A DNA stretch of 58,453 nucleotides, the filler included, from Sluysia triapertura (Eukaryota), in the NCBI GenBank assembly GCA_046118255.1. It is 4 parts of 4 records of this genome, joined end to end, with 100 filler letters (N's around TTAATTAATTAA, not from the genome) between each part and the next. Parts side by side here need not be neighbours in the genome. Positions count along the whole stretch, not along the records: positions 42,111 to 58,453 come from JBJNIA010206259.1; 3 more parts are not named here. The stretch is one strand, 5' to 3'. A model generated the notes under the pieces. It was not told the DNA's origin, searched no databases, and saw nothing but the letters and a program-made list of their open reading frames with translations. The translations under genes and the position numbers were made by a program. Numbering within the stretch: position 1 is the first letter of the stretch; each line of letters starts with the position of its first letter. Below are positions 3,531-58,453 of the stretch, one piece after another.

Positions 3531-3616
3531 CGAAACGAAATTTTTTTGATACAACTGTTATATTGATTAGCTTCGTATCTTGATATGGCCTGTTCCATTG
3601 GTGTATTCTAAAAATT

Positions 3617-5360: not shown

Positions 5361-5361
5361 A

Positions 5362-5826: not shown

Positions 5827-6004
5827 TAGACAGTTATTTAATTGACTTCTTTCTTTTCCTTCTTTGTCTTTATGATCTAATTTTTGTCGTTGATACTTGC
5901 GTACTAAACTTCATTCATTCTGGCAAAATCTCGAATTTCTTCCCTTTCATTATTTTCCATCATATAAATATTATTTCTTTTGTTTAACGGAAAGTTGTAG
6001 CGTA

Positions 6005-7019: not shown

Positions 7020-7206
7020 TGGATCTTTATTCTCTTTATTTGATTTACTATTATATTTAAGACTACTTCTAGTAGTATACACTTTTAGTGTTCAAAACTT
7101 TTAAAGATTATAACATTATCGGAAATAAATTTTTATTTAATCTATACTAAATATAGATTCACTAACTTAATCTTATCAAAACTTATTTATTTAATGTGCA
7201 CCGAGT

Positions 7207-7224
7207 TCCCTAATCTTGGCACCA
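7207..7224 (-). promoter_or_regulatory. Primer-binding site TGGTGCCAAGATTAGGGA
   Basis: TGG-initiated 18-mer 3 nt inside the LTR end (...TCTAACA) and ~190 nt upstream of the gag ATG. Confidence 0.8.
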
Positions 7225-7227
7225 AAA

Positions 7228-8250
7228 TGTTAGATTAGATTGTTTAACTTAAGTTTATCTTGTTTGGATTACTGAACTTGAGTTTTTTTATTGATTGTAT
7301 TCTAACACTTAACTGGAGGTTATCGTTCGCTCGTATCTGGTGGAAGAGATTATCTACCAAAGTTTAAATCTGAGATTAAGTAATTTAAGTTAAACTACCC
7401 GAAAATTTATTAATCAAACTTTTAGTTATTCGATGCAATATTTATCAACAAAATAAATCGTCACAAATTCAGTTAATATTCGATTTCTCTGATAGTTAAA
7501 ATTATTACCACACGTAATTATTGTATAAATTTTTCTTTTCGTTTTTATTATTTCAATGATAATATATTTGTTTAAATATTCTCTTTTACAATATAAAAAG
7601 TGAAAATATATAGAAAGTTAAATTACGTTGTTAATAATAGTTAAATTATACAAATTGTACCTCGTCTAACAGAATAGTAATGATCAAATTACACCTCGGT
7701 CAGTGGAATAAAAAATGTATCTCGTTCAATAGATTAACAGTCGAATTGTATCTCGATCTGTGGAATATTTGATTAATCCAAATTGTATCTTGATTAATTG
7801 TTAATGAACAATTCAAATTGTACCTTTTATACTTTTTTTTCTTCTGCTTGTTTCAACACTGTATTTTTATTCCATTATTAATTACTTTGTTGTGTAAAAA
7901 ATAATTCCACAAAAGAAGCTATTTATTTTTATTCTATAAAAATTATTTGCTACATTGAATACCTTATCAACATTATTCGTTTTTATTCCATTGTTAATTA
8001 TTTATTGAAATAACCATACAATTCATTCTATTGTTACATTAAATACATTAATTCCAACAATGAGTACTATTATATTTTAATTCTATTAATGATTACTTTT
8101 TTGATATAATATTGTTCATGTTTATTCCACTTTAATTATTTATACAATACATTAAGTTTAATTCATTCTTTAAAATATATTAGTTTAATATTAATTTAAT
8201 ATTACTTTTAATTTATATCTGTATTCATTCCATTTTACATTACAATTTTT
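7228..8250 (-). mobile_element. 5' LTR of the Gypsy element (outer end uncertain)
   Basis: Begins TGTTAGA on + (CA end on -) next to the PBS and contains internal tandem arrays. No matching 3' LTR was found in the window. Confidence 0.6.
7650..7826. repeat. About 6 degenerate ~30-bp tandem units, core AAATTGTA(C/T)CTCG
   Basis: Copies near 7651, 7685, 7712, 7743, 7779 and 7814. Confidence 0.8.
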
Positions 8251-10793: not shown

Positions 10794-11872
10794 TTACTTA
10801 TTATGATGTATGATGGCAAGTGTTGAGTTAATTCCGAGATCTTCAAGCTCATCAACCGAATGGTAATATTTGCATCTTGCAGCATTTTGTGAACATTCTC
10901 CAGTTTGTATTGTCACATACGGACATAGGGCCGTCTTATAATGTTTATTGAAAACTGCTAAATTGGACATCTTTATGCATAGAGGTTTGTTATTAACATA
11001 CAGTGACTTCGAATGTCCAAACTTTGAATTCTTGTTTAGATTTTTGTATTGTGAGGCATGGACTTTCTTTGTCATGACGAACAAATCAATGTCTATTATT
11101 AAGTATGATGATAGTAATATATTGACAAACATCAATATAATTTGATTCTCATTATTCGTTATAAATCTGTCGCAATTTTCATGTCGCTGTATTAATTTGT
11201 ACTTGCTCATATAAGATTCATTCAATGTCGAATTTATTTTTACATGAGAGATATAAATTGATGCAATTAGACTTAAAACTAAAGTTTTGTTCGTGTATGA
11301 AATTGACACATACTTAATCCTCTTTATCATTTGGAGAATTTTTATCAATCGCCAACTCTGCAAAATCCATAATGCGTATTATGTTTTGTGTGATTATTTG
11401 TTGAATAAGTTTTTAACATTTTAAGACATAAGAATACATCAATTTCAAACTTGGATTCATTATATTTTATTAACTTGCCTTTATCGAAAGAACATGTATA
11501 GCCAAATTGTAAGTTATTCTCTATCTGAGATTCGGTAACATTAACTCCGTTGACGTATTTGAATGGCACATATAATGACGAACTCTCGGGTAAACTAAAC
11601 CTATTTTGTAAGACTTCATTTTTACGAATCATAAAAGTATTATTTGGTTGAACAAAATCGCAATCTAAATAATTCTCAATTAAAATTTGTTCAACAATTG
11701 ATCTTAAACATTTTGATAAGTAACATGAACTTGATTTTAATTTTATGTAGTTATAAGAGAATAAATTTTCTTTTGGATTATATACAGATCTGTACAAGTT
11801 TGGACAAAGTGTCAGATCATCACTGTCTGTCAGGACAAAATCGTGCGATACTTCATCTTCCATTTTTAACAT
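10794..11872 (-). pseudogene. Best-preserved ORF-X copy: unknown domain plus C-terminal CCCH zinc finger, split by a frameshift near 11350
   Basis: Two overlapping ORFs (175 aa and 189 aa). HYKTALCPYVTIQTGECSQNAARCKYYHSVDEL (10860-10943) is a C-x9-C-x6-C-x3-H finger with a TTP-like YKTxLC lead-in. Confidence 0.75.
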
Positions 11873-14839: not shown

Positions 14840-14939
14840 NNNNNNNNNNNNNNNNNNNNNNNNNNNNNNNNNNNNNNNNNNNNTTAATTAATTAANNNNN
14901 NNNNNNNNNNNNNNNNNNNNNNNNNNNNNNNNNNNNNNN
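14840..14939. other. Assembly gap with TTAATTAATTAA linker
   Basis: N44-TTAATTAATTAA-N44, identical in all three gaps. Confidence 0.98.
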
Positions 14940-17139: not shown

Positions 17140-18350
17140 TGTAAAAAACGTTCATTTACTGCTTGGTTGTAGTATATTTACTTTTATTAAATTAAATGAT
17201 TGCTTGGACTCATGTCACATTATTATACAATAACATTGGGAATAAGTTGTGACACTTGCTACCAGTAATTTAATTAATGTACATTATTTAGATTAAAAAT
17301 CTAATTGCAACTTTAATTGTAAAATAATTATGCGGATATCATTTAATCAAATTTAATTAAAACATTGCAAAGTAGCAGTAACAATTTCTATTAATAATAT
17401 GAAAAAACATCGGAGCACAGAATTATTTAGAACAGTACTTTAACGGGACTCAAAGGTAATAAGTAATATATAATATTAGTAATATAAATTTATGATTAAT
17501 TTTATGATCAATATTTTTTAACAATTATCAAAATAATTCAGTATATATAATTATTGATTGTATGATATAAAAATTCATATATTCATGTACGAATTTTACA
17601 TGAGTATTTACATACCTGGAATATTAAGTATGCTAATGATTGACTAAAATGCTGAGTCCTGATTCAGCAATTGTTTTTATTAACTTCTCAAATAAAAAAA
17701 TAAATAATAATCACAAAATATTATTACTTAATTATTGCATTTTTAACCCATTCGCTGCCAAGGACGAGTATACTCGTCCTTGGCAGGGTGTCACGCATTG
17801 CCAAGACGAGTATATTCGTCCTACTTTAAATGTATTATAACATGCAGGCTTTTGAATAAGCAAATTATAAATATAAATGGCAATGGGGATGATTTCATAT
17901 AATTTGGGCTTGGCAGCGAATGGGTTAATCTTGTACAATTTGAATAACTAGTGTTAAGAAAAACAAATAAGTAGAAAGATTATGTAAAAATCTTCCTTAA
18001 AGATTGTAAAGGATGTTGAAAATTTGAAAATAAAAACATTTTAAAATGGTATCGTACTTATTTTATAATATATAAATATTCACAACTTAAAAAACGGCTG
18101 GAAAACCCAAAATGTACCTATAAATATCTTTAAATAACAAGATAGAAGCCAGAAACTAATAGAAAAAGTGAGAGAAAAAGCAGGAATCAACAATACTTTC
18201 AGAAAATGTAATATATAAAGTGTGATTGTGTATTACAGTATCGAAATGTATCTATTCACCTAGTTTATTAGTATCAGATTATCTACCCACAGAGAAAAAC
18301 GTATCAATCAAGTTACATTATCTAAATAAAATAAGATTTATATCAATGAA
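17140..18350 (+). pseudogene. Decayed CR1/L2-type LINE ORF1 (PHD finger remnant), interrupted by a piggyBac MITE
   Basis: GISCDTCYQ*FN*C at 17239-17280 matches PHD I.CD.C..WFH..C. YRNVSIH at ~18238 resembles the ORF1 C-terminus. Confidence 0.45.
17747..17924. mobile_element. piggyBac-type MITE, 178 bp
   Basis: TTAA target duplication (17743-17746, 17925-17928) and perfect 16-bp TIRs CCCATTCGCTGCCAAG / CTTGGCAGCGAATGGG. Confidence 0.93.
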
Positions 18351-22013: not shown

Positions 22014-22760
22014 GAAATACTTTTATTGCATGAAATGCTCATGTAACAATAAGATATTTATTCCATTATGTCTAACCATATTTGCATATTTCAAACAAAT
22101 TGAAAAATTGATAAATCATGCCCTATAGATTTACAAAAATATAAGAAAATGTATCGATTTGAAATCTCTTCTCAGCTCTGAAATGAAAACTTTTTATGAC
22201 TACAAATGCATTATTCTCATGAGTCCATATTAGAATCATATTTGTGTGAAAACATGATGAAAAATTCTCTAATTTGTTTACAACATAAATATTCTGTTTT
22301 AAATATTTCTTATATATTTTTTAAATTTTAATAAAATATATAATGAAAATATTATTCTGATATTACTGGAGAACACAAGTCATGATAGATTATTTATGTA
22401 AAATGATATCCGAGAAAAATAAACAAATACTGCAACAGTCAAATGCACCTAAGATATACCATTTTTTCCTATAATAGGGCAATGATAATTTAATAAGTAA
22501 AGATTTACTTCCAGATGCTTAAAATAGTAGTTTGGATAATAGTTCTAAAGTTTAGGCGCATTTGTAAATGAGTTTAATATTAATTTTGTATTTATGAAAA
22601 TAATTTTTTAAAGATTTTTTAGTAGTCATTTATTATTTTCTTTTATTTTTAATTCGCATTTTCATTGTTTCATATTTGTACCTTATTAAATTAAGTTTAG
22701 TTATGTTTAGTTCATTTTACATTCTTTTGTCAGTTTATCTACTTTTTCATTACTTAATAA

Positions 22761-23340
22761 CGTGTTTCCCGAAAATAAGAGCCAGCGTGATGTTTCAGGA
22801 TGATTTTAATTTAAGACCTACCTCTAAAATAAGCCCTGGTTGATTTGATAGCCGATTAGGATACCTCATAAAGCCAATGAATAGCTTGAGTCAGTGCATT
22901 CTTTAGCACATACTTCTGTATTTAAAGCACAATTAGCTTTAAACTACAACACATTCTGAGATACTTTCATAGTCAAAACATTCTGGTTCACTTCCTGACT
23001 TTGATTGATTATACCAAGATTCTAATTGTGATTTATTTTCAGAAATCCTCCAAGTTTGATTTTATTAGCAATTATCAAAGCATTTCTCCTTTGCTGTACA
23101 GTATTCATAAGAATGACTTTAAATAATGAAAATAAGTTAAATTAAGAATGTTCATAGTTAGTGGTTTTTAAGTATAATACGTATTATTCATTAGTAAATG
23201 CAAATCGGTTTTTTTTGGATATTTAGAAATTTCATAATTCTCTACTTTGTAACTTTGTTTTTCGATAGATGAAAATAGGTTACCCCATAAAAATAATAAG
23301 TGAATATTAATATAAGCCATGTCTTATTTTCGAGGATCCA
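22761..23340. mobile_element. Tigger/pogo-like internally deleted element
   Basis: Inverted ends CGTGTTTCCCGAAAATAAGA (22761) and GTCTTATTTTCGAGGA (23321), with subterminal TAAG(A/C)CC repeats. Confidence 0.7.
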
Positions 23341-27661: not shown

Positions 27662-27761
27662 NNNNNNNNNNNNNNNNNNNNNNNNNNNNNNNNNNNNNNN
27701 NNNNNTTAATTAATTAANNNNNNNNNNNNNNNNNNNNNNNNNNNNNNNNNNNNNNNNNNNN
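27662..27761. other. Assembly gap with linker
   Basis: N44-TTAATTAATTAA-N44. Confidence 0.98.
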
Positions 27762-27835
27762 GTGGTAGAGCATCGACTGCGCAGACGATGGTCCCGGGTT
27801 CGATCCCCGGTCAGTCCATTTTACGAAGTCTAACA
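27762..27835 (+). mobile_element. tRNA-derived SINE / tRNA-like element (5' end lost in gap)
   Basis: GTGGTAGAGC (A box end), CCGGGTTCGATCCCCGG (T arm / B box) and TCAGTCC acceptor strand. The anticodon arm is non-canonical (6-nt loop, mismatch) and the tail GAAGTCTAACA is shared with two other copies. Confidence 0.75.
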
Positions 27836-29380
27836 TAAATATAATAAAAATAAATAAATGTAATTTATGTTAATATAATGTTATTTTTATTTCAAATAAT
27901 AAAGTAAATGTAATTTAAGTTTTCGCAGTTGGTTTCGCTGTTCCGTCACAATACCAATACCATTCTCGCAATTTAATTTAAAAGCATTATGATCTCCATA
28001 ATAATTTTTATAATTAAAATGATTAATTTAGTGCAATTTTTAAATGAGCATTAAAAATGAGCATTATACTTTAGAGATGTATTAATTATGGTTTAATAAG
28101 AATGGTTAGTTATTGTTTAAAACAAAATTATAATTATAGTAGCTTTGTAGTTCAACTACAACTACATAAAGGAGCTGATAGCTAATCAAAAAAAAATCGA
28201 ATTACTTTTCTACTTTTAGAAGCGAATATTCTTTTTTTAGAAAATAAGTTTCCCTAATGATTTTGACAACACAACAAGTACAAGTTATATGCCTTAACGA
28301 ATGCATATTAACCATACTCTTAAATATAGAAATCTCACTTAACAACATAATTAATCCTCGGAAAATGAATCAGTTGTTCATAATAAAATAGCTTCATAAT
28401 AACCTTGGACTTTAGAAAAATTAATATAAATTTTTGTTTGCTGGTTCACTGTACAATTAATCAATGAATCAGAAAATACAAGTATTAAAATTGGTAATTT
28501 TATAAACAAAAAACTAATGAATTTTCAACATTTTTACAATTTAATAACTAAGAGATAAATCAAGCCTTTTTTGGCCTTAAATTTATTGCTTTTATGATTT
28601 TTTAAAAACAGAATTTTCCCCTTCATTAAATCGAAGTAAAAAATTTTTATTAAAAAGGATATTTCCACCGGGAGTAATTAAACTGAGTTAATTATGATTG
28701 TAGTGCTAAAATCATATTCTTGTTTTCAAAATTGTATTTATGATTTACTGTAGCCAGAATATATACTAGCTAACAGCCAATCAAAATTGAATATAATTCT
28801 TGAGAATTATTTTTTCGAAAATTAACTTTATTTTTATACTTTTAAAGATTTTAAAGGGTTGTGATGGCAACCTAATTATGCCATTTTTCTTTGGTTAATG
28901 ATTATTATGACTGTAAAATGTAAAAAATTATTTTTCACACTAAAATAAAATATAACTAATTAATATTTTTACAAACGATGAAACATCAATGTAAAAATAA
29001 ATGTGTAAAAATTTAAATTCGGATTTAATAGAAAATATTAAAACATTACCAATAAATGTTACTTGTAAATGTTCACGTGATATATTTCATACAATTCCAA
29101 TCAATCAAAATCAGTGTTTATAAATTGGTTTTAAATTCATAGACAGAAACGATGTGTGTGTATCACGTGTAATGCTATATCGTTAAAATGTATTTTCAAG
29201 TTTAATAATTTCAATAAAATATTTAGAAATCATCAAGTGTGTTAGGCATCATTGAAATTATATTTATAATAAATATAACATTTATTTTATAAACAATTTT
29301 ACCTAAGGCTGCTATAAACATTCAATGTAATTTTCCATAGACGGTAAAAGTAAATTTTCAATATTTGTTATTATTATTGT

Positions 29381-31399
29381 TGTTGGGATTGCCCAACTGT
29401 AGATCAGGAGATAGTGAGAAACATATAGTGTTAGGATTGCCCATTTAGTATATGTAAAATAGGTTAAAAGGTAACATTTTAAAATGTTTATAAGAAAAGT
29501 GATGTAGAATATCTGAAATATGTTAATATCAAAATAATTAAATATTCCTAGAGCAAGAATAATGTACAATAAAATTTTTATAATAATTTGAAACCGAAGA
29601 ACACCTGGGAGTTCCAAAGACCTTTGTAGGGTATTAAGACACTTATGAAGACCTAAGTAAAGTTTGGAAAGGTTTTTTGAAGTATGAATATACCTTCTAA
29701 ACTTCTGAACAAATGAGATCATTTGAGACCTTGTTGATCTGTTGGAACCTTTTAAGACTCTTGAGACCTTCGAGTAATTTTGTAAAAATATTTGGAACCT
29801 TTAAAATGTTCAAAGATTAAAATTATGATTAATGAAACTAAAGACAAATTTAATACATTAATAATTGGAATAAAAAAAACTAGAAAAATGGATCTGAATT
29901 GTGAAGGTGAAAACATATAGAGCCTCCTGAGTACCTTATAAAGTGTTTAACAACTTTATAATCATAATAAAATCTTTAAACTTAGAATAAAATAAGTCAA
30001 ATTAATTAATTAATTAAGATACATTAATTAATTAATTAGAGCTTAATTAAGATACATTACGTTTGTGTGAATAAATTTTGAATGAGGAACGCTATGTTAA
30101 AACTGTAACTGTTACCGATGAAGATAAGGCTTGATCGAGTTAATGCCAGGAAAGCCTCTATATTGAGCAAAGTCGAATTTTGATTAATTTTTAATTTAAA
30201 ATGTTAAATTTTTCATAATTAGGATGGTGAAAAGATAATGATTTGATGAAATAGGAGAATCCGAAAATGAGATCAAAATGTTTGTAAAATGGTTTGTTTT
30301 GAAATGAGAACCTTAAACATTTTCAATTAAAAAATTGAGTGTAGGGAATTGAAAATTAATTAAAATGTAAAAATTAAAGTTAAATTCATTAGTTTTAAGT
30401 ATGTCAATAATAATAATCATAATTGTTATTTTTATGTAAGAAGTGATTCATGAAAAACTAGATCGAGTGGAGTAGAAGAAAAAATGACAGTTGATTGTTA
30501 ATCGAATTGTTGTGTTTTGCTTGACAGGTCGTACCATTTAAATGTCAAAGTCGTTTCACTCGGTTTAATCTTTAGGAGAGGTTTTGATGATTTGTGTAAA
30601 GGTAATTCCTAATTGTGAGTTTGTGAGTGGTTAGACGTTAAAGAGATATAAAAGCGAATACATAGAAAAATTTTAACACTACAACACTTGAGACAACGTT
30701 TACGAGAAAAAAGAAAATTCATTATGATGGTGATATTTTTTTATTTTATAATTTTAATTAATTGAAATAGTTTTTTATTTATTTTGGGAAATTTTTTGTC
30801 TCTTGATAAATTTGAATATTTTTTGGGGCTCCCTCTCCGAATTGTTTTGAATTGTTTTGAGTTATACATTTAACTATTATTTTAAGATTGAATTTTGTTT
30901 TTTAACTTTTAGCTGTTGATTTTAATTGAATAGTGGGAGACTCCCTGCCGAATTTATTTTTACATTTTTTTGGTTATTAAGTAAAATAAAGACATTTGAC
31001 AAAACATAAATAGAATTTCCATTAACTCTAATTTCTGCGGATATTGATATTTTAATTAATATTGTTGAAGATCATTTTTAGTTAATTTACTCATATTCTT
31101 ATATTTGATTTTCTTTTGTAGTTAATATAGTATTGAGTTGTTTTTAAATTTGTAAATAATAAATAATTTTTGGGTTGAATAAATATCGTTATTAAGATAA
31201 GAAAATTGACGATAAATTGTACTTGTTAATTGAATTTACAAGGATTTTAAATTAGAATTTGCATTTATTCTGTGAATAATGAAATTTAGAGGATAATCAA
31301 TAATTAATAACCATTTCACGATCATGGAAGATATATTAAAAATTTGGAATTAATTTAATTATTAAATTATTGTTAATAATTTGGATTTATGACGCAACA
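29381..31399 (+). mobile_element. ~2-kb LTR-like repeat (family A), TGTTG...GACGCAACA
   Basis: 5' part matches 47427-48330 and 3' part matches 42111-42872. TATAAAAG at ~30648 and GGGAGACTCCC at 30935. No TSD seen. Confidence 0.7.
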
Positions 31400-31449
31400 A
31401 ATGAACTATAAAATGAGGAAAAAGTGATACCAAATGATGGATTGAACGT

Positions 31450-33392
31450 GATAAACATGAAAGTGAAAACATCTATAATATTAACACCTAAATAATACCA
31501 TGAAATTCCAAAGACCTATATAAGGGTTTGATACTTTATGGAAGCTTGAGATGGACTTGAAAAACCTTTCGAAGCATTAAAGTGCCTTTGAACTTGTGAA
31601 CTTTTAGATCATTTAGGACCTTAGTAACCTTTAAGTTGTTGAGTCACTGAACTAATTTGTATTTGATGTGTATAAATTTGTTTTCTGTGTAAATTTTAAA
31701 ATTTTGTTTTATTATATTTATTCACTATTATTTGATGTATTATATTTTAAAGAATTTATTAATTTGTATATGAATTCAATTAATTTGAAAAAATTAAATG
31801 TATAAATTAAAGTTTAAATGTAACTTTTAAAATTTTTATATTAAAATTAAAATGTAAATTATAAAATTTTTATACATAATTTTTAAAAGAATAATTTTTT
31901 AAAATTATAATTTTGTTTTAAATTATTAGAATAAAGAAAAAACGGTAAATTTTGTTTATTTAAATTAATTAATATATATTATAAACAGTTAAGATAAATT
32001 AAGATAGAGAAAATTATATAAATAGAAGAAGTTTAGTAAATTAGCTAGAGTAATTTTTAGTAAGGACTTAAGATATAATCAAGCATTCTTCGAATTAATG
32101 ATGATGCTGTCAAAAACAAGTAAGATTATTTGATATAAGTTTTTTAATTTTCTGATTGTAAGTAAATTTAAGTAAATAAATCCACTTAAATTTATTTAAT
32201 TTTCATAGACCGTAAAAGGCAAGGTTACAATCTTTCAAACTTTCAAGTACTAAGGGACTGAACCCCTTAAGAATTCATTGTGGTGGAGAGCCTTTTATTC
32301 AAAATTTAAATTATTTTTACACATACTGAATATCACTTTTCTTAACATTTCACATTTTATTTTTCAGATTCTTTAAAATCCTCTTACAATTTAAAACATT
32401 TTAAAGTCACATTAAAATTATACTTACATCGAAAACCATTAAACTTACATTTCAAGCTCACAACGATCTCTATCTCTTTCACAAAAGTCACACCAATCTT
32501 ATATCCAAGTCAAAATAACATTAGGTGAAAGGAATATCACAAGCAATTATTACAAGAGTGGCATTTGCCTCTTTACCACGCTACTTGCGGAAAATGTTCC
32601 AAAATCGGTGCAAACTGCAATTATGCACATGATATCTTTGAAGTACAGCAAGATTCAAATCAAGAACAGATTTTCTCCGATAACCTGAACCATGTGATCA
32701 ATCTAGTTTATAGTTTGAGCATAAGACCAGTTATTTCAAATCCCTACAACAATCGTCGATTAAGACAGGTCGCCTACGGATATAAATTTAGTTTTAAAGT
32801 AATTTTTTCGTTTGATATAATATTTTACAAACATCTTTTTAGAATTGTATTTCCAAAATAGAAATTGGACTATAACATTCCCAAACGTTTTACTACACAA
32901 CAATAACAACATTTAGTAATGCAAACTATACTTTAAGTAATTTTTGAATGTATTTTATAATTAAAATTAATATTATTTTTTGGGGGATTTTTATTAAAAT
33001 AGTTTTTGTTTTTGTGTTGTTTTTGGAAAATTTACGTTTGATTATTATTAAGGAATAAGCGTGAATAATAGTTAATATTTATTTTAATGTTGCGTCACCT
33101 TTGGCTTCTTTTGGATAGATTGTTATGTCTTTAATATTATTAAACATTATTATTAATTTTGTGATTTAATAATTTTTATTATTGTTAAAGCGGAAATTTA
33201 TAATATCAATTTGTATTTGTAATTATTAAATTATTGAATTATTGTTATTAATTTGATTTCAAAACGTAAAATTTGGGTTAAATAAATATCGTTATTAAGA
33301 TAAGAAAATTTGTGATAATTTGTATTTGTTTTAGTAATTATTGGAATTTTTGAGATTCATTTAAACTGATATTTAAATTCAAAGACGCAACA
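31450..33392 (+). mobile_element. Adjacent family-A derivative enclosing a CCCH ORF
   Basis: 31450-31640 matches 47520-47700 (TTCCAAAGACCTATAT...TTATGGAAGCTT.AGATGGAC). 33088-33392 matches the family-A 3' end. The interior has splice-like sites and the zinc-finger remnant. Confidence 0.6.
32545..32861 (+). pseudogene. CCCH zinc-finger ORF remnant (ORF-X family)
   Basis: NYYKSGIC / PLYHATCGKCSKIGANCNYAHDIFEV across a 1-nt frameshift restores the same C-x9-C-x6-C-x3-H spacing as 10860-10943. Confidence 0.7.
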
Positions 33393-33699
33393 TAATAGTA
33401 ATAATAATTGTAAATATTGATAAATATGATTATTAAATGTTTAATGTGTAAATAATTTTTAATTAATTATTAAATGTTTAATTTGTAAATAATTTTTGTA
33501 ATTTCTATAAAAAATATTTAACTTTAGAAAAGATAAAATTACAAATTTAAAAGTACAAACTTAATTAATAAGTGCAAGTTTAATTAATTAATCATATTTT
33601 CGATAAAAAATCTTATTTTTATCAATAAAATAAAATTATTGCCGCAATTAAATTTTTATCAATTGTCGGTATACTTCAGAAGGATAATTTAGTATAAGT

Positions 33700-34847: not shown

Positions 34848-34970
34848 AACAATACTATCATTATTCTAAATTGCACTTTTACGCCTGTACTTCAATTATG
34901 TTTGACCTCAAACATCATGTAAATAGTTAATTCAACATCGGAATGATATTCGATATGTGGACTCACCAAA

Positions 34971-35038
34971 TGTTAGACTTCATTAAATGAACTGACCGGG
35001 ATTCGAACCCATACTCTGAACACTAAGCTATAAGTCCC
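34971..35038 (-). mobile_element. tRNA-derived SINE copy (anticodon arm deleted)
   Basis: GGGACTTATAGCTTAGTGTTCAGAGTATGGGTTCGAATCCCGGTCAGTTCATTTAATGAAGTCTAACA. Confidence 0.75.
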
Positions 35039-42010: not shown

Positions 42011-42110
42011 NNNNNNNNNNNNNNNNNNNNNNNNNNNNNNNNNNNNNNNNNNNNTTAATTAATTAANNNNNNNNNNNNNNNNNNNNNNNNNNNNNNNNNN
42101 NNNNNNNNNN
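42011..42110. other. Assembly gap with linker
   Basis: N44-TTAATTAATTAA-N44. Confidence 0.98.
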
Positions 42111-42872
42111 GATTCTCAAAGAGGTTTGGATGATTTGTGTGAGAGAGTGTTTGGTTGTGAGATTGTGAATTGATTGGATGATGAGAGTATAAAATAAAAA
42201 ATTTCTAAATTTTTACAACACAAGAATATAATCACACTACAAGAAAATCCATTGAGAAAATCCATCTTTTGGTGAGGTTTACGTATTTTATTTTATCATT
42301 TTAATATTATTAGTTTGATTATTTTTATTATTATTATTATTATTATTTTAATTGATTTTTTGAGGATTATTTTTCAATCTTATTATTACTTAATAGAAAA
42401 CTCCCTTTATAATTTATTTTAAAATATTAAATTTATTTTTGTTTTTAACGAATTTCATTATCACTTAATGGGAGACTCCCTATATAGTGTGTTTTTAAGT
42501 TATAATATTTATCCAACATTAATATTTTAAAATTTCTGGATATTGATATTTTTTAGAGTCTGTTGCGTCACTTCTGGTATTTTCATGTAGACTGTCATAT
42601 CCTTGATTCTATAGACGTTGTTGCTAATTCTGCATTTTCAGTTATTTTATTGTTTTTAGTAAAGACTTATAATAATAATTTGTAATTTGATTCTTTTGTA
42701 ATCATTAAATTATTGTGTAATTTTGGTTTGATTTTAAAGAGTTTAATTTTGGGGGTGAATAACTATTAATATCAAATAAGAGAATTGTTTAGAAAACTTG
42801 AACTTGGTTTAACTAGTACTTAGATAATTGATATTTATTTTAAATAATTTAATAATTTTCAAAGACGCAACA
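42111..42872 (+). mobile_element. Family-A LTR-like repeat, 3' part
   Basis: GATGATTTGTGT...GATTGGATGATGAGAGTATAAAA, donor GGTGAG (42271), GGGAGACTCCC (42470), end AAAGACGCAACA. Confidence 0.75.
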
Positions 42873-43399
42873 AAGTAATAATTTATTACTTACAACAATA
42901 ATAATAAGATATACTAAAAACTAATTAAATTAATTGTAAAACGTAAATAATTAAATAATTTTAGTCATTAATATAAATATGCAATCATTTAAATACATTA
43001 AGGAATAAATTATGAAACAAAAATGATTGTATTAAAATAAAGTAAAATTTAATTAAATTGCTGAAAAGTTAATTAAATATAAAGATGAAATAATTTACAA
43101 GTAATAAATCCAAATCAATAAAGATTCGAGTTTTATTATTAACCAATTATCAGTTGGATTTTCTTGAGAAAATGGGTTTAAAAATTGTCACTTTTTGGGT
43201 TATTTTTATTTGACTACATTTACTAATGCAATTAATTAATTACAATAAATGTACTCAATAAGTAGTCTTAGTATGATATATTTGTTGGTTGGAATTATGA
43301 TGGTAATTTCACTATTTTGGGATACAGGTCTAAAGTGCTATTTGGTATAATGGACTATAATAAAATAAAATTTTAGACTCTAAATCACTAAAAATAAAT

Positions 43400-44130
43400 T
43401 TACAATTTTCATTCTCCAAAAAATCAACCAATTTAATAATTAGGGCTTCTCAGAAATAAAAAATGAATTAATCTAAATTTATAAATATCTAAATGATAAT
43501 ATGATTAATATTCTGTAAAAGTCTAATATCTCCTTAAAGTAACTTGGACAAGGAGTCTCCAAAAAATCAAAAGTGAACTAATTTATAAATATCTGAATAG
43601 TAATAAAATTAATAGTTTGTAAAACTCTAATGACTTGAGAAGACAGCCACCCAAAAAATCAAAAACGAAGTAATTTATGTTTATAAACATCTGAATAAAA
43701 ACTAATAGTTACAAAATTTTACTAACTTGGGCGGAGGCCTCCAATAAATCAACAATGATTTAATAAAATTGCTAATTTGTTTATTTATTTTGTGTTTAAA
43801 ATTATAAATAAAATTACCAATACATGAGTATCACTGTAAAAACTAAAATTCTTTTCTTATTTTTTGCGTGTTATGAAACATTTAAGGGTCCTCTTTTATA
43901 CTATCTCATCATCCAATCATTCTTGATTTTTACAATCAAACATTCTCTCACACAAATCATCACAACATTCTTTGAGAATTAAACTGACGATAATAACTTT
44001 GTCATTTGTATGGTACAGTTTGTCAAACTTTACCAGATGCAGAACACAAAAAGTTGATTTTTGAATAAAACCAGTATATAATTAAAAATTAATAACATAT
44101 TTTCGATTAAAATCAATTTAAACTAAAGAT
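43400..44130 (-). mobile_element. Family-A LTR-like repeat, inverted copy with four ~95-bp tandem units
   Basis: Reverse complement of 43890-44040 matches 42111-42195 and 30520-30655. Units AACTTG...GGAGTCTCC-AAAAAATCAA...AATTTATAAATATCT occur at ~43410-43750. Confidence 0.75.
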
Positions 44131-44393: not shown

Positions 44394-44700
44394 TTATAGC
44401 AGTATATAATTAAACAAAATTTTTGAAACAGACACAATTATTATTACATAAACTGATGGGAAAATTAGAAGTAGACATTTTGCTGAAGACATTTGTAATC
44501 GATTATTGAACAGTTCTTCTCGTGAATAGAAAATTGGAAGTTGATATTTTGGTTTTACGCATCCTTTCGTGAACACATTTGATAATTAAACGGTTTTTTC
44601 GTTGGCACATTCGTAATTCAAACATTATAACAATATCTTCTGTGGACATAATTATTATTTATTTGATAATTGAATAGGTAAAGAATACTTAATACTAAAC
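44394..44700 (-). pseudogene. ORF-X family N-terminal fragment
   Basis: CVKPKYQLPIFYSREELFNNRLQMSSAKCLLLIF ~ FVQPNNTFMIRKNEVLQNRFSLPESSSLYVPF of ORF 11345-11872. Confidence 0.5.
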
Positions 44701-46104: not shown

Positions 46105-46728
46105 TCAATATCCACGAGAACGAGATCTAGACTTTCTCCTTTTAGAAGATTTCCGACGTCTCATATAAGATCTCAAATCTCTTTCAGCATCAGGTGAAAT
46201 TTTCTTGACATGCATAAAATTACAATGACCTCCTCTGGAACATACATTTTTTTCAAATTGTGCACAGCACGCGTCTCTAAAATCAGTTACTGGTGAAAAT
46301 TCAGCATAAATCGGCCTCATTCCAAACCAACGATTATTTAAATCATTTACCGCTTTCTCGGCATCTTCTTCACGATGGAACATAATGTAAACATTTCCGA
46401 CTAGATGTTCACCAAGATTTTCGCATACTTTCATTTCCTCAATTTCACCATATTTTTCTGAAACTTCAATAAAAACTTCTTTATAGAAATCATCAAATTT
46501 TTTCTGAGCTTCCTCATTCGAGCATGTTATATGGGAGTTATCACCAGTTAAGGCCAAATTTTCTGGGGTAATGTACATATTTTTTAGTAATATTGTTTGG
46601 CTAAATGTTGGTTTATTATGAATGCGAGAACAGTTATCTCCATGCCGACAAGCACCAATTTTATAATAAAATGAACAATTAACTTTATCTTTTTCTGTTC
46701 CAAATATACTTGCTAAATATTCAGCCAT
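46105..46728 (-). CDS. U2AF1: Splicing factor U2AF small subunit (U2AF35), intronless
   Basis: MAEYLASIFGTEKDKVNCSFYYKIGACRHGD, ZnF1-UHM/RRM-ZnF2 architecture and a short RS tail. Confidence 0.98.
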   Translation of the reverse strand: MAEYLASIFGTEKDKVNCSFYYKIGACRHGDNCSRIHNKPTFSQTILLKNMYITPENLALTGDNSHITCSNEEAQKKFDDFYKEVFIEVSEKYGEIEEMKVCENLGEHLVGNVYIMFHREEDAEKAVNDLNNRWFGMRPIYAEFSPVTDFRDACCAQFEKNVCSRGGHCNFMHVKKISPDAERDLRSYMRRRKSSKRRKSRSRSRGY

Positions 46729-47426: not shown

Positions 47427-48330
47427 TGTTACGATTTCCCAACTGTGGGATAAAGAGATGACTAAGGAAGATGATGAATTGAAAATGTAGGAAAAAGGGG
47501 CGGTTTGAGTTAAGTAAAAAGTAGTTGGAATATGAAAACTTTTATAGTCATATTAACAGCTGAAGAATATCTTGGAGTTCCAAAGACCTATATAGTTTGT
47601 TGAAACCTTATGGAAGCTTCAGATGGACATGGAAAAATTTTGGGACATTAGAGTAACTTTGAACTTGTGATCTTTGAGATCATTTAAGACCGCATAGACC
47701 TTCAGGTAATCTTTGAACCTTGATAAACATTTAAAATATTTCAGGAACCTTGTAAAATAGTTGAAATATTTAAAATATGTGAGAAGTAAGATTATTGTTA
47801 AAGATAAATTTAAAATCAGAGTGGTTTAGGTAAAATCATTAATAAAACCTTTAAACATAAAGTAATATTAAAATTGATTAATTAATTAAAATCATAATTA
47901 ACTTAATTAAGAAAAATTAAGTTTTTGTGAATAACCTTTGAATGCAGTATGCTATGTCAAAGTTGAAACTGTATATGTATTTGTTTTAAAAAGACCTTTG
48001 ATTAAGGCATTGTTTGATATTGAGCAAAGTCAAATTTTAATTATTCTTAATTATAGAATGTTGAATTTTTCTTAGAATGATGAAAAAGTAATGAATTGAA
48101 TGAGATAAATGTAGTGAAAGAGGAGAATCTGTATGTGATTTTGAATTGCCTGTAGACTGGTATGTTTGAGAATAAGAACCTTAAACATTTTCCATTAGAA
48201 AATTGTGCGTGAAAAATCGAAAATTAATTGAATTCTATAAAATTAAAGTTAAATTCGTTATTTTTATGTATGAAAACAATATTAGTGATTATTATTTAAT
48301 ATGAGAAGTAATTCAAGTAAAAATAGTTGA
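47427..48330 (+). mobile_element. Family-A LTR-like repeat, 5' part
   Basis: TGTTACGATTTCCCAACTGT ~ TGTTGGGATTGCCCAACTGT (29381). Shared blocks ATATTGAGCAAAGTC, AGAACCTTAAACATTTT and AAAATTAAAGTTAAATTC. Confidence 0.8.
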
Positions 48331-48503
48331 TTTATAACTCAAGAAAGTTAGTTTAGTTAGTTATTATTATTACTATCAACGATTTGTATATCTTCAATTT
48401 TCTGTATAATAAAGTTTTTTGGAATTAATCAGTCATTTAATTTTTATAGTTTTAATTTCTTAAAATCAAGAGTTACAATTATTTTCAAAAAGCTAGAATT
48501 TAA

Positions 48504-49500
48504 CTGTAGCAACGAAAAATCTGACATAAAGATTCCATATTAAGGAATTTAAGGAAAATCATTGAATAAATTTCGGTTTAATTTATATTTAAACAGTTAT
48601 TAGATAACCTCAGTTTTTTGCAATTCATATAAGCATTGCGATAGACATTAATAAAGCTTACCTCCAGATAAGATTAAGCATTAAAATTTTAATAGCATAT
48701 CTTGAGACTTTACTTTGATTTACAAAATCAAACGGCTGGCCCTAATCGGTAAGCCCAGAACGTTGGTGAACTCACCTTGATAATCGTTTTATTTTATTAC
48801 TACTTTTTCTCACAATATATTAAGACAGACTTTTTACGGTCTGCCAAATGGCAGTTATAATTTATACGTTAAGAGAGCCTTATTACAGTGTGTCAAATAT
48901 TCAAGTAAATTAAAGATTAAATTAGCCTTTTTACGGTCTGATTAAATTTAGTAAATACTTTTAAATAATTTTACAAATCATACAGAACTTATACCAATAA
49001 AATAGAACTCACACATATATATAACAATAATATTTTAAATCTTAAGATATTGATATTATCTTAGATTATGATGATTTATCTGAAAATTAAGTCAGCCTTT
49101 TTACGGTGTTACTATGAATTAGAGATTTTAAGTTAGATTTATGTCCTATTCAATTAAAATTAAAACTTAGCAAAGATAATTACTTTTTCATGGATATTGG
49201 AAATCTGCATTAAGTTCGACGTCAAAAATATCTCATATTTCTTGAATCAATATTATTTCTTCTTGTCTTTCTTTTTTGTTCCGAAAATTTTATTAACTAA
49301 CTACTATTTATATACCTGTGTTGTGTCAGCCATATTGTTTGATTATTGATTTAATTTATTTAAACAAATAAACAATTTTATTTAGACAATTTTATTTTAC
49401 TAATTTTATTTTTTTTAATTTTATTTTTTATAATTTTTATAATAATAATATTTAAAATTAATATGTACAATAAAATATAACAATGTCTAATATAATTATA
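48504..49500 (+). mobile_element. LTR plus leader/internal segment related to the element at the right end of the window; gag absent
   Basis: 48742-48779 (TAATCGGTAAGCCCAGAACGTTGGTGAACTCACCTT) is the reverse complement counterpart of 58418-58453. 49189-49300 matches the reverse complement of 56970-57075. Confidence 0.6.
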
Positions 49501-51070
49501 CAATAAATAATATCATCACAAAAAAAATTAATTGAATCATTAATTAAATCGGTTCAATAAACAGCATTTATTCAATGAAGCGCCATCCCAGCTATCCAAC
49601 ATACATATACACGTATAACCAAGATATTTCCAGAGAATAATCTTAAAGTTAAAAGTGCTGTTACTTACGATTACGTCTCCGTAGGTCTAAATCGTATATC
49701 GTAAGCGAATCATTATTAATTATAAACAATTTGCATGAACAAATAAATAAATTTATAGAAAAAATCGTAGCATAATTTTAAAACTGATAATAAATTTATA
49801 TACAGAAGGCTTTTTGTTGAAGGAATTTTATAGTTTTATTTATATAATAGAAGTGCATTATTATATAAAGAATTTTTATTGTTATTTTAAAGAATATATC
49901 GCGATTCAAAATTTGTTTAATTACTGGATTACAGTTTGATAATTTAAAGTAAAAGTATAAAAGACGCAACACATACATAAACATGACTTCTTCCGATGCA
50001 ACCACAAACACCTTGAAATTTTCTTTCTCTTTAATAGTATCACCGTAATTCAGTTTTACCGTTTCTTACATTTACAGTTTAAGATGAGCATTTCATTCCA
50101 ACCTACAATACTGACTGAAAATTTTATTCAAGAATAGTTTCCAAACGACTTCAGACTGTCATGAATGGACTCTGCTCGTCAGCTCTAAAAGCAAACATTC
50201 TATCCCTTGTACAGGACCGCATAACTATGTGCTGTTGCCAATAACTTCACGCAAGTATCACATAGTTATTTCTCATGTGTTAAAATTGGATTCCATAGCT
50301 ACTTCACTATTCGGCGCAAGACTACAACCATAATATCCACATAATAATTACGAAAGCTTAGAACCAAACATTATTTCCAATTATTATGAAATTATGAATT
50401 ATTATTAACAAAAGTATAACATCGTCAAAAAAACTTTATTAAAAAAATAACCTTTTTCTAACCATTATTGATTTACAAAACCTTATAATTTTTCAAGGTA
50501 TTTACGAGATAAATTATAATTAATCTCGTTTTAAAATTAGTATTGCGTATAATTTGAATCATCTTAACAAAATATTTATTTGGTAATTTTATATATTTCA
50601 TATAATATAGAAATTTACATTTTTTAATAATTGAGCAACTAATTATCAAATATATGTGCACTTTGCATATTTTACAATCTATTTTTATGCCACTTTATTT
50701 TATTTAATATTATAAGTACACAATCAATCACAAAATATAAATTTATAATAATTTTGATGAAACAATTAAAACAATTGTAATTAACTGAATTCATTGTAAC
50801 ATGTATTGCATAAAATAAATTATTTTAATTTTATTTGTATATTAATAATTATCTTTCGATGAATTGTTAAGATTAAAGATAAATAATTGTTTGTAATAAT
50901 GCTAACTTAGAAGTATGTGAAAATAATCAATGCTTATAATTTATACAAACTAATACATTTACTTAATAAATTGAGCAATTTTTTATTCACATGAATTATT
51001 ACATAATTAAAATCGATTTGGTGTATATTTAATTTCGGTATAAAATGTATTTGAAAATTGGAATAAATAA

Positions 51071-52210
<1,140 letters not shown>

Positions 52211-52889: not shown

Positions 52890-53230
52890 ATGAATTTTGA
52901 CAAATCAATAGATTTTGAACCAGTTTACATTCAATATGATGCTAAATTAGAACATAATATGTCTAATCAATGCATGGAAGAATCTTCAATTGAATCAGAT
53001 TATGCTAAGCGTGTTATTTTAGAACCCTTAGCTGAAGCTATTGCTGATACTTTAAGAAAACAACCTAAAGATCCTATTTATCACATAGCACATTATTTGA
53101 GATTTTGCATGAATCGAAAAATTAATATTATGAAGGTTCGTTATATCATTTTTTGCATTACTCTAAAAATATTTTTCTTCATTCTAAATTGTTAGCTTAA
53201 ATTAAATGAAAATGAATTTTCAAATACTAG
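52890..53230 (+). CDS. Dpy-30 motif (DYDC-like) protein, first exons
   Basis: IESDYAKRVILEPLAEAIADTLRKQPKDPIYHIAHYL is a Dpy-30/RIIa-like docking motif. Exon 1 52890-53135, 60-nt GT-AG intron 53136-53195, in-frame exon 2 53196-53230 (LKLNENEFSNT). Later exons not resolved. Confidence 0.75.
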
Positions 53231-54289: not shown

Positions 54290-55110
54290 TTGGAAAACCG
54301 AGCGAGATATGTTATAAAATAATTCGAGCAGGAAGCATCCACAAAAATCAATTTATCAATAGCTTTAAAATTAAAATAATAATCAAATATTTAACTTAAA
54401 ATATTTCAAAAATAATTCGGGCAGTTTCCCAAAAAATCAATTTAACAATAATTTAAATTTCAAAATAATGACATATTTAACTTAAAGTATTTTAAAATAG
54501 CTTGGGAATGCAGTCTCCCAAAAATCAATTTTCTTAAAAAAAGAATTAATTTAGAATATTTTCCCTACTCAAAATTAAATTAAATGAATAAAATTACCAA
54601 CAACTGATTTTGAACCTAGATTTAAAATAGTTGAAAATGTGGATAATTTGCGTGGATTTTAAGAAGACGAAAACGTATTAAATAAAGCTTACTGTTTCTT
54701 TAAGAATTAGCTTCAAAGCAATCATTGATGGGCCAAAAATATTCGCCTATTGAGTGCGTAATTTTTCGTGTCCAAACAATGTCAACTTTATTATTATGGT
54801 CAAAATAAATAGTAGAAATTTTTTGGTACTGTAAGTAACCGGTTACGTTTAAGATGTAGTGTTTCACCTCATAATTCAGAATTTTATACAGCTCTATTTT
54901 CACACAAAACAGAAATCTCCACACATTAAATAAACAATTAATCTCGAAATGCCAAATACCCTTACCACAATACGTTAATCAAAACACACGATAAGACAAA
55001 TTCTTAAATATCACACTTCCTACAAAAACAATAACATCTCTCACTTTCACTTCAACTTTTATTCATCTACACACAAAATTCCCACAATCCAAACATTAGG
55101 CTAATAACAA
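54290..55110 (-). mobile_element. Family-A-like promoter module with three ~90-bp tandem units
   Basis: Minus-strand GTATAAAA (~54882-54889). Units ATTCG.GCAG...TCC(C)AAAAAATCAATTT at ~54322, 54415 and 54500. Confidence 0.6.
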
Positions 55111-55529
55111 TCGTAGGTAATGGTAGTTATTAATTATGGTAATAATAGCATCGTTTTTATTGTTTTATTTTTATCATTTTTCTTTTCATTTTGTATATGT
55201 TCAATAAAATTTATTGTCCTTCTAGAACATATTTTACCAGAACTTTATATAACAAGGTATCTATATAAACCAACAGAACTTGTAGTAAAGTGTTCATTTT
55301 CACTGTTAATGGCTTGCTCATTTTAGTTTCAATATGTTATTTTGTATTTTGTTTCTTACATTAATGATCTAAAATTGTACAACTTCATATGTTAATGTTA
55401 TTCAGTGGCAAGTTATGTTTTTATTTTTTCTGTTTACGCGTCTATCTGTATATTATTTAATTAAAATTATTTTGCCTACTATTTATCATCATTAAATTAT
55501 AAAAATAATAATAATTTTTTAATCAATAA

Positions 55530-56490
55530 GTAAAAATTGATCTTGAAAATTGTGATCATGGCTGCCTAATTATCTTGAAGCACAACTCTAAAACTACTTT
55601 CATTATGGAACAAGATTCTGGTAAATCATTAATTAATTCATATGACAAATGTATATTTCTGCTAATTCATACTATGCTCAAAATTCGTTTAATAAGCTCA
55701 CATACCAACATGTATGTAAAGACAATTTGAATCGACAAGCTAATGTAATATCAAAGGTATTAATAGTCGTATTGAACCTAACTTATTGTCTCAAATTAAA
55801 ACCAAATTAATTAGGATTGAATTTAATGCTAATCATGTTAAAATTCACACATAAGCTACCTTTCATAAAATTATTCGAGGATTTTCTGGATTGTTGTCGA
55901 TTACAATATATATCATTTTCCATAGTTCATTCGACCTACACACAGAATATGATCAAAAACTCCTAAAAATTGAAATTTTTACTCCTTGTAATCTCAGATG
56001 AAGCTATGATAATAGACAAATCTTTAACTGTAAGTTTCATATTCATTAAACATAAAATTTTGTGTTTGTATTTGTGTTTTTTATTCTAAAATTTTTATAA
56101 TTAAATTTATCGTTTTATGCAATAAGTCAGTTGAATTTTTTATTTTATTTATGAATTTAACTTTAGTAAAGTAAAGGTCCTTAAGACCCATGTTTATGTT
56201 AAAGAATTGTTTAATTTAGTATTTAAATTATCAAAAAATAAAAATTATATTTTACTAACTTTTAAAGAAATTTGCATAAATGGCCACCATTTTAGAGTTT
56301 TTAACAGCACCTTTCAAGCAATTTTACCTTAATACTATAGACGTCATAATCTTAGACCAATCTGTAATTCATTTCATTAAACCTAAATTTGAAATTTATT
56401 TCTGCAAATTTCGTATCTCAAGTTATGACAATGCTGTGTTATACGAAACACTTTACAGCCTATTTTAACTATTCTCACAACACGTAAATA
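55530..56490 (+). pseudogene. Decayed ORF-X family copy, antisense to the adjacent Gypsy element
   Basis: KIDLENCDHGCLIILK (55533) ~ KFEIDVFLCLKMLK; INSRIEPNLLSQIK (55759); DQKLLKIEIFTP (55951); FRISSYDN (~56410); YFNYSH (~56461) may be a finger end. Confidence 0.6.
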
Positions 56491-57217
56491 ATGTTTTACT
56501 ATATTCATATTTCACTCGTGATCGTTTGTTTAAATTTCTAGGCGGATCGACTCTTATTTCAACTAAATCTATGATTTTTACACATCCAATTGTAGTTAAT
56601 ACACAAAACGAGAGTATGTTACTAAGTCTTCCATTAAGTATAACTGTTTACAAACTTGTATATGTCAGAATATTATATTTATATTACATTTATGTATGTG
56701 TAAATGTGTCGATTTTCTATTTTGAAAAAAATAGCAAATTATTATTTTTATTATATTAAATATTAAATACTGAAAAATATAAGTATCAAAAATATAATAA
56801 ATATTAAATACTAAATAAAAAATGTAAATATCAAAAAATTAGAAAATATTTAAAAATCTATCAAGTAATTTTGCATTAAATTACCAATTTATTTGAAATT
56901 ATTTGTAGGTTAAGAAGAAATTAATTTATTTAAGATGCCAACTTAGTAAATTTAATATAAATTGACTGAAAATTTTAGAACAAAAAACACAAATGAAGAT
57001 TTTAGAACAAGGACACAAGAAGAAAATTAGAAAAGAGTTTTACCATAAATTTGAATCCAGAAAATCCATGTCTAATAAGTAATTTCTTTATATTAAGTTT
57101 TCATATTCATACCATAATTTTTGGGAATATTAAAATATACTTAAATTCTTATTATCATCTATGTAACTTATATTTTTTCTGGTTTCATTTTTAGTACTTT
57201 CAATACTTCTTAATTTC

Positions 57218-57739
57218 TTAACTGTCTTTGAATGGCATTTCTTCGATTAAATCTACATAAATTCGTAATTCGGGACGTAGTCCATTTTTAAATTTTTCTA
57301 TTAATGTTATTTCTCTTCTATTATCTGCAATCCTGGCTCTGGACGCTAAACATCTAAGCGCACAGGCAAATTCATAAACTGTTTCGTTTGGTTTCTGCAC
57401 TCTTATATTAAGCAGACTTGCGTAGTGTTTTCCTATGTCTTCTAATGCTATTTCTTCGGTAAAAAAATCGACAAATGTGTTCCAATCTCTTTTATGTTCA
57501 TCTTTTATCTCCTTATATATTTGTATCGCGACACCAGTTAAATAATATTGTATTCTCTTAACCTTACCTATTGGTGACCAGCCATTAGCTTCAGTTAGGC
57601 TATCAAATTCAAATAAAAAGTCACAAAGTTCTTCCTCGGCGCCACTAAACTTGCACATTTCTGGAAGTATTACTATTTGCTTAATATTCTGAGTCAGTTG
57701 AGTATTACAATCTTTAAATTCTTCAAATGGTACCATCAT
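57218..57739 (-). CDS. Retrotransposon Gag capsid-domain ORF (173 aa, probably C-truncated)
   Basis: KFSG...DFLFEF...ANGW...YYLTGVA...W..F...F...RVQKPNETVYEFACALRCLASRA...EKFKNGLRPELR is a classic retrotransposon gag motif series. Confidence 0.9.
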   Translation of the reverse strand: MMVPFEEFKDCNTQLTQNIKQIVILPEMCKFSGAEEELCDFLFEFDSLTEANGWSPIGKVKRIQYYLTGVAIQIYKEIKDEHKRDWNTFVDFFTEEIALEDIGKHYASLLNIRVQKPNETVYEFACALRCLASRARIADNRREITLIEKFKNGLRPELRIYVDLIEEMPFKDS

Positions 57740-58200
57740 TCAAGTGAGTTGCTTCTTAATGTTCTCTTATATTATTATTATTTCTATCTATTTCTATTCT
57801 TAATGTTATTACTTAACAATAAGATTCAATAATCAAAATCAAATAATCGTATCATTTATTTAACAATTAACAATTTAAACTTAATATCAACACAATGTAA
57901 CTTCAAAAATCAAAAAAGTAACTTATCAAAAACTTAATGCATTCAAATTTAAAGTATTCAAACTATCAACTTAAACAACTTAAGAATATCAATAAACTTA
58001 AAAACTTACCGTAAACTTAAATTCAACTTAATAAACTTGAAAGAAATTCAACAGTAACTTAAGCTAAAATTCAACTTTAATCAATATAAACTTCAATTAA
58101 TAAAAAACTTTACTTCAACCGTGATACGTGACAAATATGAAATAAATTCAGCTTAACTTAATAATGAAAACTTAATAAACTTATAATATGCTTCGAGTGG

Positions 58201-58217
58201 TCCCAATTCGGGAGCCA
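58201..58217 (-). promoter_or_regulatory. Primer-binding site TGGCTCCCGAATTGGGA
   Basis: TGG-initiated, 5 nt from the LTR end, and followed by ACTCG as in the first element. Confidence 0.75.
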
Positions 58218-58453
58218 AATTTTGCAAGTGTTTCTATTAAAAACTTAATCTTACAAAATATCTAAGGAGTATGTCCGCCTAATATATACGATTTATACCA
58301 CTGTTGAAGACGTATTATTAGGATTTTATAACTTAGGAAACTTTTGCTTATACCTTATAATCTAGGAATAATTATTTGCAAGATTTGATTAAATGTGCGA
58401 ATAAAGTGTCACTTAAAAGGTGAGTTCACCAACGTCTTGGTCTTACTGAGTTA

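Follow-up and report, generated by a model that had tools for sequence, protein, structure and literature searches.

Does an animal Gypsy retrotransposon carry a gene of its own on the antisense strand? The question is raised by one end of a stretch of 58,453 nt (hereafter the window) from Sluysia triapertura (GenBank assembly GCA_046118255.1), where an intact gag open reading frame (ORF) and the end of a long terminal repeat (LTR) are followed by a broken coding stretch, ORF-X, on the opposite strand. The original prediction took ORF-X for an antisense accessory gene of Gypsy elements that encodes a CCCH protein and occurs in several further copies. This reading as a whole is partly supported. 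We give an about even chance to the view that the region 54.3-58.5 kb (copy C) is an old non-autonomous, gag-only Gypsy-type LTR element carrying an antisense spliced gene, and that 47.4-50.3 kb (copy B) belongs to the same family and has suffered further deletions. The evidence on ORF-X and Gypsy consists of comparisons within the window only. The window has a GC content of 24% and is made up of four pieces joined by an identical stop-codon linker (gaps of 100 nt each at 14840-14939, 27663-27762 and 42012-42110), and distances across these gaps are unreliable.

A coding remnant antisense to gag at the right end of the window

The order predicted for the right end, LTR, primer-binding site, gag, an internal segment and a convergent ORF-X, was recovered in full. 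LTR end, putative primer site, intact gag and segment all lie on the minus strand and are followed by the broken coding sequence on the plus strand, which is antisense to gag and downstream of it. The 3' end of the 5' LTR (58225-58453, minus strand) is cut by the window end and contains a 67-nt motif that is also present at 48746-48812 (49/64 identical, score 76.6; 0/764 other tiles as good). Directly after the CA follows a TGG word resembling a primer-binding site (58200-58217, minus strand; CA-TGG junction at 58224, site 58224-58200). This putative primer site is known by the CA-TGG junction and by the likeness of its region to an element at 7.2 kb (46/62 identical); Rfam and ARAGORN returned nothing on the window, and no tRNA gene is present in it. 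The gag ORF (57739-57218, minus strand) encodes 173 amino acids, stops after the capsid domain, reaches 24.6 bits against PF03732 (Retrotrans_gag; cutoff 24.1) and matches the gag at 6.9 kb (tblastn E 4e-4). As no pol frame follows gag, copy C would be at best non-autonomous, and its putative placement in the Ty3/Gypsy superfamily is read from gag alone.

ORF-X had been placed at 55530-56490. On the plus strand this interval requires 7 breaks to be read through, compared to 13.4 in 300 shuffles (p 0.007), and on the minus strand the number of breaks is at background (p 0.32); env and integrase remnants, which served as controls, are likewise stop-depleted in the same test. The coding-like character and the antisense orientation were thus borne out, but the remnant reaches further than proposed, to about 56756. 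It comprises a probable first exon (55540-56029, plus strand) with frameshifts and stops (3 breaks versus 6.5, p 0.007) and a weak likeness to a finger-containing copy at 32.5 kb, a probable AT-rich intron of 238 nt (56030-56267, plus strand) with a GTAAGT donor and, as read from the sequence, a TACTAAC branch word at 56253-56259 and an AAG acceptor, and a probable second exon (56268-56756, plus strand) with a 159-codon frame from 56280 that is interrupted by one stop (2 breaks versus 5.5, p 0.003). Because both halves are stop-depleted on the plus strand, with an intron-like stretch between them, the region 55.5-56.8 kb is read as a decayed gene antisense to gag, and a probably spliced one.

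The segment adjoining ORF-X (56740-57110, minus strand, non-coding and AT-rich) was said to be the same at three loci, the other two being copy A (104-385, plus strand) and the segment of copy B (49153-49512, plus strand). This likeness is invisible to blastn of the window against itself (no match of ≥50 bits among the three) and to uniform-score alignments, which are not better than local shuffles, and the word CATGGA alone occurs at chance in the window (13 seen, 13.9 expected). With composition-aware scoring, however, the three segments align in register from one start: none of 3000 random window pieces is as good as the B-C alignment, and the corresponding fractions are 0.5% for A-C and 2.9% for A-B. 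Used as a query, the segment of copy C ranks B (0/756) and A (0/758) above all other tiles, and the segments are mutual best matches in a scan that covered seven regions, together about 22 of the 58 kb. We thus take the three segments as probable but weak homologues.

In copy C nested inverted arms connect the segment with the ORF-X region (55879-55892/57054-57067, 14/14 matching; 56070-56095/56969-56994, 25/26 matching; 0/500 shuffles as good), the inner left arm falling within the probable intron. A long-range stem is predicted from them in both the minimum-energy and the centroid fold, and copy B contains a weaker pair of arms about 900 nt apart (10/500 shuffles as good). It could be argued from these arms that RNA structure is the function, with the stem folding the element RNA or feeding small-RNA silencing. 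Such a role appears very improbable, as copy A contains no such arms (394/500 shuffles as good), those of B and C are not equivalent in sequence or position, copy C could also be explained by a local inverted duplication, and the stop depletion indicates former coding.

A second copy with the same module order

The best support for an architecture of LTR, segment and antisense ORF-X comes from copy B. Its left part (47427-48965, plus strand) begins with TGTT as the start of a longer repeat described below (unit U), followed by the LTR-end match and a decayed primer-site-like stretch, without gag; the segment comes next, and then a heavily decayed ORF-X remnant (49540-50340, minus strand). Module order and orientation are the same in copies B and C, and for the LTR end, the segment and the first ORF-X exon of copy C the top or second-ranked tiles lie at 48.7, 49.2 and 50.0-50.3 kb (0/764, 0/756 and 1/758, respectively). 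An end-to-end alignment places the LTR end and primer site of copy C on 48742-49000; there, gag is absent and only a decayed form of the primer site is left. Within the window ORF-X stands beside the LTR-end motif at two of the two loci bearing it. The original prediction had called the ORF-X of copy B a weak candidate; it shares its position in the order with copy C and ranks 3rd in a leave-one-out comparison with 206 GC-matched pieces, but its stop depletion is not significant (p 0.12). This comparison of sequences supports one old Gypsy-type family, apparently non-autonomous, that carried coding sequence in antisense and is represented by two copies.

Flanking repeats and the possibility of an independent unit

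ORF-X was further described as lying head-to-head with a TATA module. A G/T-rich tract is indeed shared in this position at 10.8 and 55.5 kb, but the TATA core shows no detectable homology at 54.6-54.8 kb or 14.1-14.6 kb, and only the flanking parts of the unit are shared. Including a third tract at 32.5 kb, the head-to-head tracts are mutual best matches with scores of 56-66 (reversed-sequence maxima 57-62). In copy C the tract occupies 54860-55130 (minus strand), possibly as the U3 of a 3' LTR. It matches 48034-48167 (1/758), upstream of the LTR end of copy B, as is expected if the tract belongs to a direct terminal repeat. To its left lies an 86-90-nt tandem of unit U (54315-54607, minus strand) that is also found at 43535-43827 (score 98 vs 33) and 30818-31016. 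Unit U is about 2 kb long (TGTT start, TATA, donor-like site, 90-nt tandem, family A) and was located at 29381-31950, 42112-43100, 43476-44130, 47427-48326 and 33088-33590, being arranged in tandem at 29.4-32 kb and inverted at 42.1-44.1 kb, with at least six places in the window; it may be a long LTR. Family A (33088-33392, 42561-42872, 31391-31399, 49963-49971) has TG...CA termini, no target-site duplication and perfect 9-nt inverted ends, TGTTGCGTC/GACGCAACA (6 matches vs 0.07 expected). It comes after ORF-X on the same strand at 33.1 kb and in copy B (49 vs 34); its strand is that of U at 42.6 kb and that of ORF-X at 33.1 and 49.3-50.0 kb. A reading of family A as an LTR end was not supported.

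These repeats bring up another explanation, in which ORF-X and unit U form a repeated unit of their own, either a non-Gypsy mobile element or an expanded host gene family with a bidirectional promoter, which gag and the LTR end adjoin by nested insertion in a region dense with repeats. It would account for the four of six proposed ORF-X copies that lie near neither an LTR end nor a matching gag, for the repeated occurrence of unit U, for the inverted ends of family A, whose strand relative to U and ORF-X varies by locus, and for an intact gag next to a broken ORF-X. However, LTR end, segment and ORF-X piece stand in one order at two loci, which would be rare under independent insertions, and the window ORFs that were scanned included no transposase or Helitron frame. 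We consider an independent unit unlikely.

Relation of the antisense gene to Unkempt-type finger genes

Regarding the CCCH protein proposed for the antisense strand, the antisense remnant exists in two copies, but the gag-linked copy has no Pfam match and lacks the finger pattern. A recognisable Unkempt-type finger was found only at 10.8 and 32.5 kb. The former is an open ORF of 178 amino acids (10794-11330, minus strand) with an intact C-x9-C-x6-C-x3-H finger, which matches PF25427 with E 1.4e-6 and 28.6 bits, below the cutoff of 31.1, and weakly matches Unkempt 5elh. The latter is a broken gene copy (32515-32879, plus strand; PF25427 E 0.014) whose finger is split by a frameshift. The two are clearly related (frameshift-aware score 74 vs a null maximum of 47; 0/2000 for DNA). 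Among 20 frameshift-aware pairs the only other one that beat all 80 nulls is 32.5-55.5 kb (score 53). This link extends over about 90 codons, starts within the finger and is the top window match of the 55.5-kb exon. At the DNA level 12/15 pairs of ORF-X candidates are not significant, and a weaker group is formed by 55.5, 49.5 and 44.4 kb (55.5-49.5, 9/2000; 49.5-44.4, 0/2000). In the leave-one-out comparison introduced above, 32.5 kb ranks 2nd, 10.8 kb 3rd, 55.5 kb 10th, 44.4 kb 16th (marginal) and 0.76 kb 48th (background).

The locus at 44.4 kb (44398-44560, plus strand) is a possible further ORF-X remnant, which lies head-to-head with a TATA module at 43852-44059 and aligns with copy B at 0/2000, and which is not stop-depleted; an SH2 reading of this locus was not supported. 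Together with 32.5 kb it had been set aside in the original prediction as not fitting, yet both loci share the head-to-head flank. The copy proposed at 760-1450 (minus strand) is unsupported: it is not stop-depleted (p 0.46), its rank is at background, and it lies on the same strand as the adjacent Gypsy gag. By-eye motif matches (the word FTHP, and the second exon against 0.76 kb) failed their controls.

The antisense remnant could also be real and part of the element but an unrelated captured host passenger, with the CCCH genes at 10.8 and 32.5 kb belonging to another family and the name ORF-X lumping AT-rich look-alikes. The C-x9-C-x6-C-x3-H pattern is absent at 55.5 kb (all three frames) and at 49.5 kb, the gag-linked copy retaining at most one finger ligand. 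Neither half of the 55.5-kb remnant matches a Pfam family, the exons are without a PDB match, the second included, and for this second exon no match in the whole window exceeds the control. The subgroups of 10.8 and 32.5 kb and of 55.5, 49.5 and 44.4 kb are thus bridged by one borderline score. Yet it is this link, as the top match in the window beginning inside the finger, that speaks against a passenger, and the G/T tract and the family-A stretch independently tie 32.5 kb to copies B and C. The shared head-to-head tract and the presence of family A on the strand of ORF-X add some weight to identity with the finger gene. We hold a passenger to be unlikely and lean moderately towards the gag-linked gene at 55.5 kb being the same gene as the finger gene.

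The 10.8-kb neighbourhood and a separate Gypsy element

The ORFs at 10.8-11.9 kb cannot be treated as one ORF-X, as had been done, since the upstream ORF is Grb2-derived. This open, intronless ORF of 175 amino acids (11345-11872, minus strand) abuts the finger ORF in a different frame, and its residues 1-95 correspond to a diverged flatworm-type Grb2 SH3 and part of an SH2 domain (E 9e-5 over 1.84 billion proteins; E 2.5e-13 in the window). The alignment begins at the first Met and ends in SH2, and the closest relatives are flatworm Grb2 proteins, hinting at a flatworm host. Its DNA matches 48001-48209 (score 75 vs 36). A third SH3 across the break at 11.35 kb was not supported, a HEPN/DUF4559 reading (0.94, low recognition) was rejected in favour of Grb2, and the repeat-protein matches P0001 and P0002 are summed weak repeats. 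A Grb2-derived intronless ORF beside the 10.8-kb finger points to host-gene capture by the repeat complex or its neighbourhood.

A separate decayed Gypsy provirus lies at 3000-7230 (minus strand) with primer site, gag, a fusion-glycoprotein env (PF24664, E 1e-20, at about 5058-4414), a protease motif near 4320 and integrase (Integrase_H2C2, E 0.0024). The fusion glycoprotein is Monjiviricetes-like and lies between gag and protease, in the GAG-ENV-POL order of errantiviruses. No match to reverse transcriptase/RNase H was obtained in this element, and its 3' LTR was not found. Relative to it the candidate at 760-1450 is in sense orientation and downstream, and the 10.8-kb ORF is in sense orientation and upstream; as both are sense, neither supports an antisense position. 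The element is followed at 2900-2056 by a Cys-rich stretch and a frame of 109 amino acids with a hydrophobic helix and PPSY. A tRNA-like short repeat, probably a short interspersed nuclear element, is present in three copies (about 1570-1620, 27763-27836 and 34970-35010), one of which separates the 7.2-kb element from the 760-1450 candidate.

Weighing the evidence and a possible mechanism

Several observations weigh against this view of copies B and C and against the link to the finger genes. Near the finger copies at 10.8 and 32.5 kb lies neither an LTR end nor a matching gag, and the gag nearest to the 10.8-kb ORF is on the same strand. The score of 53 between 32.5 and 55.5 kb compares to 52 in a reversed-window control, a control of the same kind gave 72 for the 32.5-kb query, and the DNA similarity of this pair is at background. 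For copy C no LTR pair was found, its LTR end scoring 42.8 against its own left flank, behind several chance tiles; none of 8 candidate junctions shows a polypurine tract, and no target-site duplication was seen. Gag has 0 breaks and ORF-X about 5, which fits different ages. Inside ORF-X, two B-C alignments put one stretch of B at different positions of C, and since they are mutually inconsistent one of them is due to chance. Finally, the regions tested were picked after inspection, making the p-values optimistic, and the number of copies is two.

If the antisense gene nevertheless belongs to the element, a spliced gene for a protein would have stood in the family between gag and the 3' end, in antisense orientation, and was probably put together from pieces of captured host mRNA. 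It is slightly better than an even guess that the G/T tract and tandem represent the 3' LTR and provided a divergent promoter, by analogy to plant antisense ORFs and to HBZ of human T-cell leukaemia virus (HTLV). Unkempt fingers bind RNA, and if the gene is the finger gene one may speculate, with considerable doubt, that its product bound RNA, most simply that of the element, and tuned its splicing, export or translation. As pseudogenes, the copies next to the LTR end give no reason to expect a protein function from the locus today. The most far-reaching version, an animal (probably flatworm) Gypsy lineage with a fixed spliced antisense gene derived from a captured Unkempt-type CCCH finger, driven by the 3' LTR, binding element or host RNA in an HBZ-like manner, with a Grb2-derived ORF in front of the gene in one branch, is tentative and would have to be called doubtful.

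In the collections searched beyond the window, no relative of gag or the CCCH ORF appeared: for the CCCH ORF, word-index protein searches gave 0/36 and 0/452 candidates, viral contigs and metagenome contigs (the latter searched with gag and with the CCCH ORF) contained none, and exact look-up of five window proteins was equally negative. Single-sequence structure prediction was uninformative (predicted local distance difference test, pLDDT, 35). Host genes in the surroundings are an intronless U2AF35-like gene (46105-46728, minus strand), an intronless actin gene situated between copies B and C (51080-52210, plus strand) and a gene with a Dpy-30 motif (52890-53195, plus strand). Short palindrome-ended, repeat-like inserts at 17755-17914 and 22760-23330 are possible remnants of DNA transposons.

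Comparison with known systems

If true, an antisense ORF with a host RNA-binding finger in an animal would offer a testable function and a case of antisense host-gene capture; with two decayed copies as evidence, its value is that of a lead for a genome-wide look. No report of an antisense CCCH gene in an animal Gypsy element was found in the literature covered, which leaves subscription papers and Repbase outside its scope. The 10.8-kb ORF shares with the Unkempt CCCH finger (PF25427; PDB 5elh) the C-x9-C-x6-C-x3-H spacing and sequence likeness, but has one finger instead of a tandem set and scores below the Pfam cutoff. The neighbouring ORF resembles Grb2 in SH3 and SH2 from the first Met, but ends in SH2 with no third SH3 detected.

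TR-GAG elements of plants are non-autonomous LTR elements with LTR, primer site and gag but no pol. The right-end copy shares this composition, with a putative primer site and, as known here, one LTR end, and differs by the extra antisense coding stretch. Antisense accessory ORFs of LTR elements are known for the most part from plants and fungi, where they are established in the interval between pol and the 3' LTR of Gypsy elements; no function is known for them. Like plant antisense ORFs of the aORF-3R type and Retand, which has non-autonomous members, the right-end copy shows antisense coding sequence downstream of gag with its head toward the 3' end; it differs in its animal host, the lack of pol, the broken frame, the absence of a TRP28/Smc domain, a possible Unkempt-type finger and a 3' LTR that is a candidate only.

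In animals, an antisense transcript of Burro-1 is said to have been described by Grohme et al. in 2018; it is absent from the review passages. The giant planarian Gypsy elements Burro/GYPSM1 are described, in the passages available, as containing captured host domains and accessory ORFs (PMC6431247). With Burro and the flatworm GAG-ENV-POL errantiviruses the 3.0-7.2 kb element shares, as far as these passages go, the gag-env-protease order and a mononegavirus-like fusion protein (PMC6431247, PMC13524379), but it is not the carrier of ORF-X, and the right-end element is small and gag-only. Bdelloid LTR elements contain a captured ORF3, which lies 3' of pol and is described as forming spliced units, and are likewise animal LTR elements with captured ORFs other than env; the passages of that source name no antisense ORF or CCCH finger (PMC5408684). 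HBZ of HTLV-1 has its antisense promoter in the 3' LTR, as cited in PMC7264820, and what it may have in common with the right-end element, by analogy only and with no relation in sequence expected, is a spliced antisense gene that is here proposed to have been driven from the 3' end.

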